A stretch of DNA of 24,472 bases from Pseudobdellovibrionaceae bacterium (GTDB lineage Bacteria; Bdellovibrionota; Bdellovibrionia; Bdellovibrionales; Bdellovibrionaceae), in contig JBGGMM010000134.1 of assembly GCA_041288045.1 (NCBI GenBank), positions 1 through 24,472 on the forward strand, in the 5' to 3' direction. A program made the position numbers and the translations under genes. Of the stretch, positions 5,149-13,910 are shown one piece after another; within the stretch, counting starts at the first letter, position 1, and each line of letters starts with the position of its first letter. The notes below the pieces were generated by a model. It had not been told where the DNA came from and did not search any database. It saw nothing but the letters and a program-made list of their open reading frames with translations.

Positions 5149-6846
5149 ATGAAAAAAACCATCATGAATGCACTGATTGCCACTGTTCTGAGCGCCACGA
5201 TGATCCAATCTCCCGCTCAAGCAGCTCTCAATAACAACGAATTCAAAATTGGGATCTCACAAGAATTCGAAACCCTCAATCCGATCATTTTCACCATGGT
5301 CGCCAGCGTCTATATGTACGGACTGGTTGGCCGCTCTCTAGTCGCCCTGGATGCCAATGGCAAATGGGTTCCGCAGCTCGCAAAGTCCATTCCCACTCTA
5401 GAGAATGGCGGCGCCAAGCTGGTCACTGTGAAAGGCAAAAAAACGGTCCAAGCCACTTGGGAAATTCTTGAGAAGGCCAAATGGGGCGATGGCCAACCCG
5501 TTGTCTGCGATGACTTCAAGCTAGCTCGCGAAATCGCCGAGAGCCCGAATGTTAGCGTTGGCGCCAAAGAAACTTTCACTCAAGTCGACACCATCGAATG
5601 GGATGCAAAGAATCCGAAGAAATGCACTTTCACTTACGACAAAGCCCGCTGGAATTTCAATCAGATCGGCCAGTTCTATGCAGTTCCGCGCCATCTGGAA
5701 GAAGCTGTGTTCAAAAAATGGAAAGATAAAAAAGAAGGCTATGAAACCAATAGCAACTACGCCAAGAATCCAACCATGGAAGGACTTTACAATGGTCCTT
5801 ACAAAATCCAAGAAGTGAAGTTGGGTTCGCATCTGACTTTTGTTCCCAATCCTCATTTCTATGGACCAGCTCCGCAGATCAAAAAAATTGTGATCAAACT
5901 GTTCCCCAACACAGCCACTCTAGAGGCGAATCTCCGCTCTGGAACAATTGATTCGATTTCCTCTTTGGGATTCACCATGGATCAGGCTTTGGCCTTTGAA
6001 AAGAAAGTCAAATCCGAAAGCCTTCCCTACAGTGTTGAATTCAAACCCAGCCTGACTTATGAACACATCGATCTGAATCTGGAAAACCCGATTCTGAAAG
6101 ACGTCCGCGTTCGTAAAGCACTTGTTTACTCGATCAACCGTGAAGACATGGTGAAAGCCCTCTTTGATGGCAAACAGCCAGTCGCTCTTCATAATTTGGC
6201 GACAATTGACCCTTGGTTTACAAGTGATCCTAAAAAAATCACCGTCTACTCATTTTCAAAAAGAGAAGCTTCAAAACTATTAGATGAAGCCGGATGGAAA
6301 ATGGGTCCAGATGGCGTGCGCATGAAAGACGGAAAGAAACTGTCTTTGACATTCATGACAACGGCTGGAAACAAAATCCGCGAAACAGTTCAAACATTTT
6401 TGCAAAATAACTGGAAAGCAGTTGGCATCGAAGTGGTGATCAAAAACGAACCAGCGCGTGTTTTCTTCGGTGAAACGATGAAAAAGCGCAAATACGGGGC
6501 GATGGGAATGTACGCTTGGATGTCGGCTCCTGAAAGTGACTTGAAACCAAGTTTCCACTCTTCACAAATTCCTTCTGCGAAGAATGGCTGGTCTGGACAA
6601 AACCAGATGGCTTGGAGCAATCCAAAAGTGGATGAAATTTGCGAAAAAATGGAAACAGAATTTGATCTGAAAAAGCGAATCGCCCTCGCTCAAGAATTCT
6701 TAAAACTCTACACAGACGAAGTTCCTGTGATTCCGCTCTACTACCGATCGGATATTGCTGTGAGCCCGCTAGCTCTGAAAAATTTCCGTCTGCCAGGCCA
6801 TCAGTACTCTGAAACCAACGAAGCTGAGACTTGGACTGTTCAATAA
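5149..6846 (+). CDS. oppA: Peptide ABC transporter substrate-binding protein (SBP family 5)
   Basis: ATG at 5149 with AAGGAG RBS; signal peptide ending PAQA; family-5 motifs (W.DG.P, NGPY, DVRVRKAL..SINRE, LLDEAGW, P.IPLY). Confidence 0.88.
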   Translation: MKKTIMNALIATVLSATMIQSPAQAALNNNEFKIGISQEFETLNPIIFTMVASVYMYGLVGRSLVALDANGKWVPQLAKSIPTLENGGAKLVTVKGKKTVQATWEILEKAKWGDGQPVVCDDFKLAREIAESPNVSVGAKETFTQVDTIEWDAKNPKKCTFTYDKARWNFNQIGQFYAVPRHLEEAVFKKWKDKKEGYETNSNYAKNPTMEGLYNGPYKIQEVKLGSHLTFVPNPHFYGPAPQIKKIVIKLFPNTATLEANLRSGTIDSISSLGFTMDQALAFEKKVKSESLPYSVEFKPSLTYEHIDLNLENPILKDVRVRKALVYSINREDMVKALFDGKQPVALHNLATIDPWFTSDPKKITVYSFSKREASKLLDEAGWKMGPDGVRMKDGKKLSLTFMTTAGNKIRETVQTFLQNNWKAVGIEVVIKNEPARVFFGETMKKRKYGAMGMYAWMSAPESDLKPSFHSSQIPSAKNGWSGQNQMAWSNPKVDEICEKMETEFDLKKRIALAQEFLKLYTDEVPVIPLYYRSDIAVSPLALKNFRLPGHQYSETNEAETWTVQ

Positions 6847-9042: not shown

Positions 9043-9582
9043 TTAAATCGCGCTTTCAGCTGGCACATTTTCAACTGGAATCGGCTCTGGCAAATCCATT
9101 GTCGATTCATCTGACGGAAGTGGCGGCGCAGCTGGAGCCGGTCTCAATTGAACTGTCATTTCTGTCATGTCTGCGTAAGCCTTCTTGGATTTCTTGCCAG
9201 CTCTTTTTGAAGTCACCACGGCTGTTTTTCCGGCGCTTCCTTTTTTGATTTGCGCCCCACTTGATTTTTTTTCAACCGGAGTGGATTCGATTTCTTCGGC
9301 CGATGCTTTCGCCTTTGTCCCATTCATTTTCTTGAGCTCTTGCTCGTAATGAGATTTCAAATTCTGAAGCTTTTCAGCGTATTCTTTTTTGATCTGCTCA
9401 ATTTGCGCGTTTTTTTCATCGGTCACGCAAGTTCGATAGGTTTCAACTGCGACTTCTTTGGCTTTGATTCGGCAAGAAGCCTCAATTTCAGTCGAAGGAC
9501 GGATGGAGCTCATCGGAGCTTCCATAGGCGCAGCCCCGGCTGAAAATGTCAAAAAAAGAGAGATTGTAAAAATGGATTTCAT
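9043..9582 (-). CDS. Secreted hypothetical protein (Cys pair, coiled coil, disordered Lys/Pro-rich tail)
   Basis: Signal peptide MKSIFTISLFLTFSAGA; C-x13-C; RBS AGGAG upstream; follows the 9601-11628 gene after 18 nt. Confidence 0.75.
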   Translation of the reverse strand: MKSIFTISLFLTFSAGAAPMEAPMSSIRPSTEIEASCRIKAKEVAVETYRTCVTDEKNAQIEQIKKEYAEKLQNLKSHYEQELKKMNGTKAKASAEEIESTPVEKKSSGAQIKKGSAGKTAVVTSKRAGKKSKKAYADMTEMTVQLRPAPAAPPLPSDESTMDLPEPIPVENVPAESAI

Positions 9583-11628: not shown

Positions 11629-11852
11629 AAACAACCCACCCAGTTTGATTCCTGCCATCCACCGGTTTCGACCGATGATCTTTATCTTCAGCGACCCACC
11701 ACCGAAGACTTCGATTGAGAATATGCCAAAATTTGTCCCATCTCTCCACCAAGAGTGACCGCAGAGATAAAAAAGAATGAAAAACCAAAGATTTTTCTGT
11801 TCATTTTTCCCAACTGTCATTTTTTTCGACAGCATTTCAATTCAAGCTCTCC

Positions 11853-12084
11853 TCAACTCCAGAGCAACTGCCAATCGGCTGTCGAAAGCCCTCTCAATCT
11901 TTGCTTGGAGTACTTGATCTCACCTTTCGCCTCTTTCTCATTGAGCCTGATATAATTCCTAACCGTGAGATAAGCCTTCCAGCCTTTCACGATGCGTGTG
12001 AAAGGCCGAAATTTCCAAAGCTTGGTCTTCCTTCCCCCTGTCTTTGTGGGGACTTGTCTTGATCCCGTAGTTGGGTGGGGGGTA
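11853..12084 (-). pseudogene. 3' fragment of an HUH/Y1 (IS200/RAYT-like) transposase gene interrupted by the IS110 element
   Basis: Encodes TPHPTTGSRQVPTKTGGRKTKLWKFRPFTRIVKGWKAYLTVRNYIRLN..., the LW..RPF.R and Y-x3-N catalytic region of Y1 transposases. Joins in frame to 13526-13905. Confidence 0.85.
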
Positions 12085-12091
12085 TCGTCTG

Positions 12092-12103
12092 TGAAAAACA
12101 GCA
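12092..12103. repeat. Subterminal inverted repeat, right end (TGAAAAACAGCA)
   Basis: Exact reverse complement of 13509-13520; 4 nt from the core. Confidence 0.92.
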
Positions 12104-12412
12104 AGAAAAAAATAAAAGTTTCCCCTAACTTGATCCTAGCTCAAATTCATCCATAAACTATTTGCTTTCGTCTCTCTCTACGCGGTGAAGATGATCTTTT
12201 CTAATGGACACATCTTTGATGCCTTTTCGTTTGCATTCAATCGTCTGTTAGGTGCCTCAAGGGCCATTCCATTCATTGTGGATATATGCGGAAGTCGGGA
12301 CAGTCGGTCACACTGAACCTGTCCTTTTTTCAAAGACGGTTACCATACCCATGGTCCTCTTGCTTCCATCCTGCCAAGACTCCTCATTCCTCGAAGAGAA
12401 CTGATAGGAAAA
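12104..12412 (-). ncRNA. Putative bridge RNA/seekRNA of the IS1111-type element (exact ends unknown)
   Basis: Non-coding region 3' of the recombinase. On minus it contains GGGTAT (12345-12350) and GTGACCGA (12304-12311), matching the two strands of the target, and ACAGACGA (12241-12248) and ATGT (12210-12213), matching the two strands of the circle junction. Each pair flanks a hairpin and is closed by a stem (folded by eye). Confidence 0.82.
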
Positions 12413-13432
12413 CTACTTCGGTAAATTCTCTAAAATTAAATTTTCATCGTATGCCTTTTTGTTCTTAACAATGCTCAAACAAATCGAAGCGACCTTGCGA
12501 GCCAGTGCTCTTCTCGCTACTCGTTTGTCGAGATTCTTTTTCTCAATGGATTCTAGGTAGAACTTTTTGAGTGCGGTTTCTTTTCCCATAATGATATTTA
12601 TCGCTGTTCCCAGGAAAGCCTCTTTAAGCTCCGATCTCCCATGAACAGAGCGGATTCTCACGGTAGCTCCATCACTTTCATCTCGATACTTAACAAGCAT
12701 CGAATACGCCCAAAGATGATGCTTACTCTTAAACCTTTTCCCATCACCAAGCCAAGCTGCAATCACATGGGCTCTGATGGGACCGATACCAGGAACTGAT
12801 TGCAATAACTCAACGGTAGAAAGAGCTAAAGTGTTGCTCTCAAGTAAAGCCTTAAACTCTGCGACCTGCCTATTCTTTTCGACAAGCTCAACAGACATTT
12901 TCTGAGCAACTAATTTTTTAATGGGATTTTCAATAAGTTCAAAAACTTCTGGCTTCTCCCAAAATCTTCCCCGAGTCTCTACGACAACAGCTTCAGAACG
13001 AAGTAAAGCTTTCAAATTCTTTCTCAGCACCACAAATCGACGAGAAGTATCAGTGTAGTATTTTACAAAAGCTCTGGAATCAAATTCAGCTGAATCACTG
13101 TGATGAACCTGAGTTAAATTTCCAGCCTTAAGCTGCATGGCCAAATGAAGTGCATCTCGATAGTCAGATTTAGGACCTGTCTTTTTGGGTAAGTAATTTG
13201 GATTGCAAATAATGAGTTCATCAACGCAGTCCTTCATAAAGCGATAGGCCCAGTGAGATGTATTTGTTTCTTCAAAAACAAGCTTTTTTACACCTGAAAT
13301 GCTTTTCAGAAAGCTTTTGATTTCTGCTTTTTTCGTGGCCATTTTTTTCTGATGGGTAATTTCGCCATCATCATTAAAAATCACAAAAGTTGATGTTTTA
13401 CTATGCAGATCTAATCCGATATAGTTCGTCAT
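12413..13432 (-). CDS. IS110-family recombinase (DEDD RuvC-like domain plus Tnp20 domain), 339 aa
   Basis: YIGLD (D8), VFE (E54), KSDYRDA (D90, D93), SVPGIGP, RFKS, AYSML..ES(253)DG, ALARK; AAGGAG RBS; no frameshift or internal stop. Confidence 0.95.
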   Translation of the reverse strand: MTNYIGLDLHSKTSTFVIFNDDGEITHQKKMATKKAEIKSFLKSISGVKKLVFEETNTSHWAYRFMKDCVDELIICNPNYLPKKTGPKSDYRDALHLAMQLKAGNLTQVHHSDSAEFDSRAFVKYYTDTSRRFVVLRKNLKALLRSEAVVVETRGRFWEKPEVFELIENPIKKLVAQKMSVELVEKNRQVAEFKALLESNTLALSTVELLQSVPGIGPIRAHVIAAWLGDGKRFKSKHHLWAYSMLVKYRDESDGATVRIRSVHGRSELKEAFLGTAINIIMGKETALKKFYLESIEKKNLDKRVARRALARKVASICLSIVKNKKAYDENLILENLPK

Positions 13433-13508
13433 GCAGTCTCCTTGGTGAATAGTTCGTTGTAAAAACCATTCTCTGGGGCTCCTGGTTGCTTTGGCAATCA
13501 GGAGCGAC

Positions 13509-13520
13509 TGCTGTTTTTCA
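13509..13520. repeat. Subterminal inverted repeat, left end (TGCTGTTTTTCA)
   Basis: Exact reverse complement of 12092-12103; 5 nt from the core. Confidence 0.92.
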
Positions 13521-13525
13521 TAATG

Positions 13526-13905
13526 TCGGTCACGAGCAACTTATTCTTCCCGAACTCCTGGGCGATTTGTCCTGCCACAACTCTTAGAAAATGCTGAGCG
13601 AGAGATCTTTTCGAGATTCTGATCAACAAATGAATGTGATCTCCACAAATGGCTTTCTGCTCGATTTTCACAAAGAACTTTTTCGAATAGCGCTTGAGCA
13701 CTCTTTCACAGATGGAAAAAGCAAGAGGTGAGCGAAACCCCCGGCGCATCCCAAGGCGATCAGCTTTCAGCACCAAATGAATGGGATCCTTCGAAGATAA
13801 AGACCTGGCACCACGGCCCAAGCGTTTTTGTCGTAAGATCCCGCCGTGTGTGTAGCGGAATTTCCAGTGAACTTTTCCAAATTCAAATCCTAGTTGGTGA
13901 CCCAT
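13526..13905 (-). pseudogene. 5' fragment of the HUH/Y1 (IS200/RAYT-like) transposase gene
   Basis: MGHQLGFEF...PIHLVLK...DHIHLLIR (HUH motif)...LLVTD; GGAGG upstream. It now reads into the IS end and stops at 13498. Confidence 0.87.
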
Positions 13906-13910
13906 ACCCC
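13897..13910 (+). repeat. 14-bp motif GTGACCCATACCCC, an inverted 13/14 copy of the reconstituted IS target GTGACCGATACCCC
   Basis: Read directly at 13897-13910 (+), overlapping the Y1 ATG (13903-13905). The other copy is on minus and is split by the IS. Confidence 0.75.

Follow-up and report, generated by a model that had tools for sequence, protein, structure and literature searches.

The window analysed here is a stretch of 24,472 nucleotides (nt) from contig JBGGMM010000134.1 of a Pseudobdellovibrionaceae bacterium from soil. On its minus strand it carries an insertion sequence that, on the evidence of its sequence and of comparison with relatives, is very probably an uncharacterised IS1111-type copy of the IS110 family, with a 325-nt non-coding region (NCR) downstream of the transposase gene that encodes a predicted two-module bridge (or seek) RNA. 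The target guides and one donor guide of this divergent IS1111-type ortholog can be read directly from the sequence. Bridge or seek RNAs of this kind are already known for the family; what is new is a divergent example and not a new mechanism. The original prediction, made from the letters of the window, had named an uncharacterised IS1111-type element with a CGA core and a downstream NCR specifying an RNA with a target loop and a donor loop, and this was borne out by in-silico tests. We infer that the RNA would be produced, bound by the protein and used to direct recombination, and that this copy may be active; programmability would follow from membership of the family.

Element boundaries and the empty site

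Both junctions of the element were read directly from the window. On the minus strand the left junction is GTGAC-CGA-CATTA followed by TGAAAAACAGCA, and the right junction is TGCTGTTTTTCA-CAGA-CGA-TACCCCCC, which reads ACAGA-CGA-TACCCC around the core triplet. The subterminal repeats are perfect and are offset from the element ends by 5 nt on the left and 4 nt on the right. The features of the element and of the gene that it interrupts are as follows.

12085..13528, minus strand: IS1111-type insertion sequence including both CGA copies (1441 bp counted with one copy)
13526..13528, minus strand: left copy of the core triplet CGA (junction reading and contig join, with 3 ambiguous letters)
13525-13521, minus strand: left terminal extension CATTA, preceding TGAAAAACAGCA
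13509..13520, minus strand: left subterminal inverted repeat TGAAAAACAGCA (12/12 inverted match to the right arm)
12413..13432, minus strand: transposase gene, 339 amino acids (aa), DEDD/RuvC-like N-terminal domain and Transposase_20 C-terminal domain (open reading frame (ORF), Pfam)
12092..12103, minus strand: right subterminal inverted repeat TGCTGTTTTTCA (12/12 inverted match to the left arm)
12091-12088, minus strand: right terminal extension CAGA, following TGCTGTTTTTCA
12085..12087, minus strand: right copy of the core triplet CGA (junction reading and contig join)
13526..13923, minus strand: N-terminal part of the interrupted Y1-transposase-like (RAYT-like) gene
11853..12084, minus strand: C-terminal part of the same gene (ORF list and joined-flank ORF)

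The element occurs once in the assembly (2.89 Mb, 249 contigs, 83% complete), and its flanks match six further places there. Five distinct paralogous sites were read; two of them (on contigs C41 and C2) carry GTGACCGATACCCCCC uninterrupted, and three carry one- or two-base variants. Contigs from two of three public DNA runs, all belonging to one study, join position 12084 to 13526, skipping 1441 bases with 3 ambiguous letters. Since these run contigs deviate from the window at 19-31 other positions, we interpret them as paralogous empty sites and not as excision of this copy. The summed word depth in the run contigs is 40-90 for the flanks (11850-12070 and 13540-13800) against about 3-4 for the element, which points to many variants of the Y1 gene in that community and to a rare element.

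When the window flanks are joined through a single CGA, they form a 209-aa ORF that is 93.3% identical over its full length to an intact paralog. The interrupted gene is a weak relative of Y1/HUH transposases, with a Pfam Y1_Tnp match below the cut-off and a match to the NCBIfam model of REP-associated tyrosine transposases (REP_Tyr_transpos) at E 0.0043. The empty site and the element boundaries are real: the junctions and the empty site GTGAC-CGA-TACCC had been deduced from the window, and GTGACCGATACCCCCC was found intact in paralogs of the same genome, while the run contigs bridge the gap.

A divergent IS110-family transposase

The transposase contains both Pfam domains of the family, PF01548 (DEDD_Tnp_IS110; 40.5 bits, cut-off 29, 3.1e-10) and PF02371 (Transposase_20; 41.3 bits, cut-off 21.3, 2e-10). 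Residues D8, E54, D90, D93 and S253, which we take to be catalytic, are invariant among 60 homologs, and S253 is aligned to the ES-G of the IS621 transposase. The match to the IS621 transposase structure 8wt6 is distant (E 0.0015, residues 188-329); the IS621 and ISCro4 structures match in the C-terminal part only, with E about 0.002. The alignment to the NCBIfam model NF033542 ("IS110 family RNA-guided transposase") spans residues 4-326 with E 3.2e-34, and the nearest named relative found by the plasmid search is ISSso6, at 24% identity. Judging by its sequence, the protein is a divergent member of the IS110 family.

IS1111 elements are defined by subterminal inverted repeats of 7-17 bp and short terminal extensions (PMC11208160; PMC11187229), and their transposases of 330-350 aa are reported to carry the C-terminal motif GL-P----S(t)G (PMC11187229). 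In the corresponding motif here, M-L-V-K-Y-R-D-E-S-D-G, the L and S are kept, the P is replaced and a D stands between S and G; the consensus of the clade is AMLVRHxDESDG. The element has 12-bp subterminal repeats with terminal extensions, an NCR that is longer downstream of the transposase gene (325 nt) than upstream (93 nt), and a 339-aa transposase. Assignment to the IS1111 type of the IS110 family is based on the pair of Pfam domains, the 12/12 subterminal repeats, the 325-nt downstream NCR and the length of the transposase.

The predicted RNA

The downstream NCR can be divided into a target-binding module and a donor-binding module, with covariation counts below referring to an alignment of 23 sequences.

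12290..12367, minus strand: target-binding module, 78 nt (helices P1 and P2 covary)
12367-12363 with 12294-12290, minus strand: helix P1, GGAAG with CTTCC (compensatory changes at 5/5 pairs)
12357-12354 with 12301-12298, minus strand: helix P2, GGAC with GTCC (compensatory changes at 2/4 pairs)
12345..12350, minus strand: right target guide GGGTAT, complementary to top-strand A-TACCC (last core base and right flank)
12316..12341, minus strand: hairpin in the target loop, AACC..GGTT (base covaries at 3/4 pairs; present in the minimum free energy (MFE) fold)
12304..12311, minus strand: left target guide GTGACCGA, identical to the top-strand left flank and core
12233..12289, minus strand: donor-binding module closed by helix P3 (covariation, cognate helix test, covariance model)
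12289-12286 with 12236-12233, minus strand: helix P3, GCAT with ATGC (90% paired, 3/4 pairs compensated; seen by eye)
12266..12280, minus strand: block homologous to the family right donor guide, which is complementary to the left end (position by homology)
12252..12265, minus strand: small hairpin in the donor loop, GGCC-CTTGA-GGC(A)C (94% paired in the family; extra A in the window)
12241..12248, minus strand: left donor guide ACAGACGA, identical to the right-end extension and core
12210..12240, minus strand: alternative hairpin TTGAATGC..GCATCAA plus ATGT, another pairing of the P3 3' strand (favoured by energy, not by comparison)

All strings of loop 1, the target loop, lie on the minus strand where the original prediction had placed them, with the guides between two helices. 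The two target guides overlap at the last core base and sit between the covarying P1/P2 and the internal hairpin, which is short in the window and about 70 nt longer among relatives that target resolvase genes. Their equation with the two target strands was upheld, exactly for GTGACCGA and through the family-wide cognate match for GGGTAT. The order of the guides likewise agrees with the one expected for IS1111 elements, for which PMC11187229 reports that, read 5' to 3', the guide complementary to the top strand comes before the one complementary to the bottom strand. Across the family, both loops have one layout: a top-strand guide, a hairpin and a bottom-strand guide.

In the donor loop, ACAGACGA is an exact guide for the right end and core, as had been proposed. 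The family right donor guide is a conserved block between P3 and the small hairpin with the consensus CCAACATTGTCATGG, complementary to left-end GA-CAATG. The homologous block in the window is CCACAATGAATGGAATGG, of which only CACAATG (12280-12274) pairs (6/7 by eye) with the left extension CATTATG, leaving the core unpaired. Helix P3 has an A-U pair in the window where the family consensus has U-A.

We assessed how often such matches arise by chance with 5000 dinucleotide shuffles of the NCR, counting only matches that touch the core. A match of at least 8 nt to the target top strand was seen in 103 shuffles and one to the donor top strand in 166; both 8-mers occurred jointly in 5/5000, and both together with the 6-mer in 1/5000. 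Loop 1 and ACAGACGA thus exceed chance, and ATGT, the second donor guide of the original drawing, does not. From these counts the window alone supports two guides and gives neither support for ATGT nor independent support for GGGTAT. An earlier chance test, on the longest match to 27-nt junction strings (47 and 225 of 2000 shuffles), was dropped as too loose because of A-runs.

Each left guide is found three times in the window: GTGACCGA in the left junction, in the NCR and at 9419-9426, and ACAGACGA in the right junction, in the NCR and on the plus strand at 6712. The copy at 9419-9426 was considered as a second target and rejected, being a half-site in an unrelated ORF without a Pfam match.

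Covariation of structure and guides among relatives

Among 2685 candidates we identified 116 homologs of the transposase at E up to 0.001. The closest (P0002, P0003, P0005 and P0006, 84, 76, 66 and 65% identical) are encoded on short contigs, and the homolog DNA used for comparison covers 27-54% identity, from 20 of 401 same-phylum genomes and 80 metagenome loci kept of 199 confirmed. No homolog above 54% identity was found by the metagenome scan, and a scan of genome contigs with the single transposase protein gave 76 pattern matches and no relatives. With the window NCR as an nhmmer query, 16 of 66 downstream regions were matched, the best being L036 (1.7e-13), L010 (1.4e-11) and L039 (2.8e-10).

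The structural alignment consisted of the window and 22 relatives (33-54% protein identity) chosen for complete, non-redundant NCRs. RNAalifold recovered four of the five helices unaided (P1, P2, the base of the target-loop hairpin and the small hairpin), with compensatory changes at 11/15 pairs. The five helices together comprise 20 pairs, which are 92.4% paired across the alignment against 77.6% in column shuffles (reached by 0/500); both sides have changed at 14/20 pairs, and slid controls are 35-57% paired. The upstream helix of the P3 type is specific to its cognate sequence (5.00 vs 4.38 when permuted, 0/5000).

A covariance model covering the donor module was built from the 22 relatives with the window left out. 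Over both strands of the 24.5-kb window it gave a single match, at 12225-12292 on the minus strand (30.4 bits, E 4.7e-6). This match spans the full length of the model, places ATGC opposite the upstream GCAT and is the sole one in the 2.89-Mb assembly.

For the guides, we compared each of the four RNA blocks with the junction windows of its own locus and with those of other loci, taking the mean longest exact match. Twenty of the 23 loci were used (L010, L062 and L018 were left out for want of a reliable left end), and 18 for the right flank, where the contigs of L067 and L016 end. The results, with the number of 5000 permutations reaching the observed value, were:

Left target guide: own flanks 6.05, permuted 3.80, 0/5000 (20 loci)
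Right target guide: own flanks 5.72, permuted 3.73, 0/5000 (n=18)
Left donor guide: own flanks 6.30, permuted 3.76, 0/5000 (20 loci)
Right donor guide block, 5' of the small hairpin, against the left end: own flanks 5.05, permuted 3.80, 0/5000 (20 loci)

All four guide classes therefore match their own flanks better than permuted ones. Examples in which guide and junction match are CACTGTCAGA in L039, TGTCACGG and AGATCTGATG in L055, ATACTGGT in L051 and ACAAGCGA in L037. Guide-target covariation across homologs and a covariance model on their NCRs were among the computational checks that the original prediction had proposed; each gave a positive result, the model for the donor module.

In 18/20 loci the left target guide and the left donor guide have their final triplet in common, as a shared core predicts, and the triplet itself varies between loci (CGA, AGA, GGT, GGC, CGG, TGA). 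At the right junction, the triplet differs from the core triplet of the guides in 9/18 loci (AGA, GGA, TGA, GAG, CAC and others). By eye, the left-junction triplet departs from the guides' core in only one or two loci, a comparison that is partly circular, as the script located the triplet via the guide. These patterns suggest that imperfect target cores may be tolerated and end up on the right side.

Alternative explanations

Several observations weigh against a functional guide RNA in an IS1111-type element. Only one copy of the element, whose activity is putative, is present in an 83%-complete assembly. The transposase scores 118.6 bits against the NF033542 cut-off of 140, and its identity to annotated plasmid-borne IS110-family genes is at most 29%. 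GGGTAT alone is at chance level (1083/5000 NCR shuffles) and covers one core base only. The guide complementary to the left end is poor in the window, with a longest exact match of 4 nt; by eye, its block matches at 6/10 positions, against 9/10 in the same register in the 54% relative L036, and it carries a 3-nt insertion relative to the covariance model. The MFE fold of the whole NCR is no better than that of shuffled sequences (z 0.30; 62/100 fold at least as well), and P3 has a probability of 0.02 in the ensemble of the window, exceeding 0.5 in only 3/23 sequences. No RNA run carrying the stretch was found among public sequencing runs. Finally, the loci behind the permutation counts are related, seven of the 20 falling in one target class, so that these counts are not probabilities.

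Some of these points would be expected if the matches had arisen by chance, or as a relic of the target carried within the element, and there were no guide RNA: the search for an RNA run with the stretch gave none, the whole-NCR fold is unremarkable, and a scan of 11800-13800 against Rfam 15 at E up to 1 returned no match. The Rfam result means that no curated model matched and nothing more, and a fold no better than shuffles makes the whole-NCR fold uninformative for a protein-bound RNA with large loops. The joint occurrence of two 8-mers is rare in shuffles, different guides within the same architecture track different targets in relatives, and the independent covariance model recovers the donor module, which together make such a coincidence extremely improbable.

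A guide RNA whose second loop is as first drawn is very unlikely. In that drawing ACAGACGA is followed by a hairpin of TTGAATGC (12240-12233), ten bases and GCATCAA (12222-12216), ATGT (12213-12210) is the second donor guide, and the loop is closed by CTAA/TTAG. All these strings are present in the window. Folding energies favour this drawing: the P3 3' strand pairs downstream with probability 0.76 in the window, against 0.02 for P3, and does so above 0.5 in 9/23 sequences, and a 4-6-bp helix with downstream sequence can be drawn in 22/23. Comparison, on the other hand, supports neither the hairpin nor the ATGT guide. The downstream helix is not specific to its cognate sequence (4.83 vs 4.65, reached by 771/5000), in contrast to P3, and the 45 nt after P3 have no cognate complementarity to the left end (4.55 vs 4.63; 3556/5000). 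ATGT is a 4-mer, and a donor-complementary match as long as the observed one occurs in 3481/5000 NCR shuffles. In the covariance model made from the 22 relatives alone, ATGC is aligned with the GCAT that lies upstream.

The RNA gene may also be homologous to functional bridge RNAs in a copy that is itself decaying or crippled, blind to its own left end and stuck in place. The right donor guide block has its insertion and no core pairing, and the right target guide reads TATGG in the window where the guide of L036, a relative that shares the target and has almost identical ends, has TATCG and pairs along the entire core; moreover, the element is present once despite nine exact copies of its 14-mer target in the genome. 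Against this, the transposase gene has a full-length ORF that keeps every residue invariant in the family, neither subterminal repeat has a mismatch and the other three guides match exactly. Metagenome assemblies often collapse or lose repeats, which makes the copy number uninformative, and a short RNA with target matches alone sufficed for movement of ISEc11 (Siddiquee 2024, PMC11187229). We consider a crippled copy unlikely; either this copy may be somewhat degraded, or core pairing by the right target and right donor guides may be dispensable.

Proposed mechanism

For an IS1111-type element with a two-module RNA, module 1 (12367-12290) would be the target loop held by P1 and P2, with GGGTAT pairing with the top strand right of the insertion point. 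Module 2 (12289-12233) would be the donor loop closed by P3 (GCAT/ATGC), its 5' block being weakly complementary to the left end in this copy. By analogy with ISEc11 and IS621, the element would excise as a circle joining ACAGA-CGA-CATTA, and the circle junction would create a promoter, TTGCTG-17-TATGAA, from which the transposase and the RNA would be transcribed together. The RNA-protein complex could then pair with the REP-like site GTGACCGATACCCC and recombine at the CGA triplet. The concept of a junction promoter is described in PMC12288879 and PMC11187229. The putative promoter is made up of the following parts.

12099..12104, minus strand: -35-like TTGCTG in the right end, which in the circle is 17 nt from the -10-like TATGAA of the left end (13522-13517)

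By eye, relatives have TTGC.. and TATAAA at the same places.

The donor-loop helix has 4-5 bp, and its 3' strand is able to pair with the downstream hairpin; competition between the two pairings could act as a switch between an inactive precursor and an active bridge form. It is doubtful, if worth keeping in mind, that this environmental clade is a distinct IS1111-like subfamily with its own mechanics, a reading that draws on the S-D-G motif, the guide order in both loops, the weak donor-loop helix and the junction-triplet pattern. If it were true, the junction triplets would reveal a tolerance of target cores that do not match, and also which of the products retains which core.

Targets of the element and its relatives

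The target 14-mer GTGACCGATACCCC has 9 exact copies in the 2.89-Mb genome, where about 0.02 are expected; allowing up to 1 mismatch raises the count to 24, and allowing up to 2 raises it to 54. Three of the exact copies lie in paralogs of the Y1 gene and four in another repeat context, a fifth copy of which has one mismatch. This second context, GGTTGGCTTTGGATTCTTGAGAT followed by the motif, was seen on contigs C119, C192 (twice), C231 and C87. Each Y1-transposase-like gene contains one direct and two inverted variants of the motif (in the window, the latter are at 13897-13910 and 13728-13741 on the plus strand). L036 is inserted in the same 16-mer, adjoining but not within a Y1 homolog of 49% identity. 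From its sequence, the target looks like a REP-type motif tied to a RAYT-like gene, and REP-type targeting is reported as a known habit of IS110-family elements (PMC12288879). In biological terms this is ordinary, one mobile element homing on another.

A plus-strand match to the target 13-mer, with 2 mismatches, is present at 12779-12791 of the window, in the helix-hairpin-helix codons (PGIGP) of the transposase gene, and is probably due to chance.

The relatives use other sites. A sister clade with 43-47% transposase identity (L037, L038 and L045, and by eye also L040, L041, L043 and L009) is inserted at a single conserved position of serine-recombinase genes. On the left side, the flanking DNA of L038, L045 and L037 encodes Pfam Resolvase to profile position 128/145, ending in QLERDLI(A/C), and the right flanks go on with ERV...; the right flanks alone gave no Resolvase match. 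Two relatives at about 39-40% identity (L049:1798-1887 and L064:2233-2325) end beside opposite-strand tRNA-Ser genes, and in each the right target guide matches the region at the 3' end of the tRNA, GGAGGAGAG. The flank of L052 is similar to those of L049 and L064, with no tRNA called there. In L040, the DNA flanking the element on the right (...GCCGA|CTGTTCATCTCC...) is the part of a second copy of this element that holds the left target guide, so the L040 copy looks as if it had inserted into DNA encoding its own guide, which resembles the left half of the target.

Recombinases guided by bridge or seek RNAs are being sought as tools for genome engineering, and few orthologs have so far been put to the test. 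The 23 members compared here form a series in which nature has re-programmed the targets, the donor ends and even the core triplet; among the sites targeted are the REP-like motif, a conserved position of serine-recombinase genes and places beside tRNA-Ser genes. The series yields testable rules of guide placement for IS1111-type RNAs, which are less well understood than that of IS621.

Comparison with known systems

Among characterised elements, ISEc11, ISPa11, ISKpn4 and ISPst6 (PMC11187229) resemble the present one in their subterminal repeats and in the long NCR that follows the transposase gene. The transposase of ISEc11 is 339 aa long, as it is here, and those of IS1111 elements with seekRNAs are about 340 aa. 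In the reported seekRNAs, too, the match complementary to the top strand stands 5' of the match complementary to the bottom strand around a hairpin, an order that was found experimentally for the target loop (Siddiquee 2024, PMC11187229). The 78-nt target module is within the 70-100 nt of a short seekRNA, and a circle-junction promoter can be drawn here as it is for those elements (PMC11187229). The differences are that the sequence is very distant, with no named relative above 29% identity in the collections searched; that the C-terminal motif is L-V-K-x4-S-D-G in place of the GL-P-x4-S(t)G given in PMC11187229; that the target is a REP-like 14-mer linked to Y1-transposase genes; and that the RNA is predicted from sequence.

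The bridge RNA of IS621 (Durrant 2024, PMC11208160) likewise has two loops, each with a guide per strand, and a core shared by the guides, for which the same triplet in 18/20 loci is the counterpart here. Both transposases have a DEDD N-terminal and a serine-bearing C-terminal domain (PMC11208160; 8wt6). IS621 has its RNA in the left end, whereas here it lies in the right. Relative to IS621, each loop also has its guides in the opposite order, the core appears to be a triplet in place of the dinucleotide CT, the subterminal repeats are long and the donor loop is closed by only 4-5 bp. For the IS1111 group, Durrant 2024 predicted bridge RNAs in 93.0% of ISfinder elements, in the right end as here (PMC11208160). 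Pairing in those predictions, at 8-14 nt, is comparable in length to the guides of 6-8 nt here; unlike the loop described in that text, the one in our consensus is simple and contains a single small hairpin. Insertion into a short and highly repeated motif is shared with IS621, ISPpu9 and ISPpu10 (PMC12288879), the 14-mer being present nine times in this genome; here, unlike in those elements, a multi-copy Y1-transposase-like gene also contains the motif, both internally and at its 5' end, and this insertion disrupts the gene of another mobile element.

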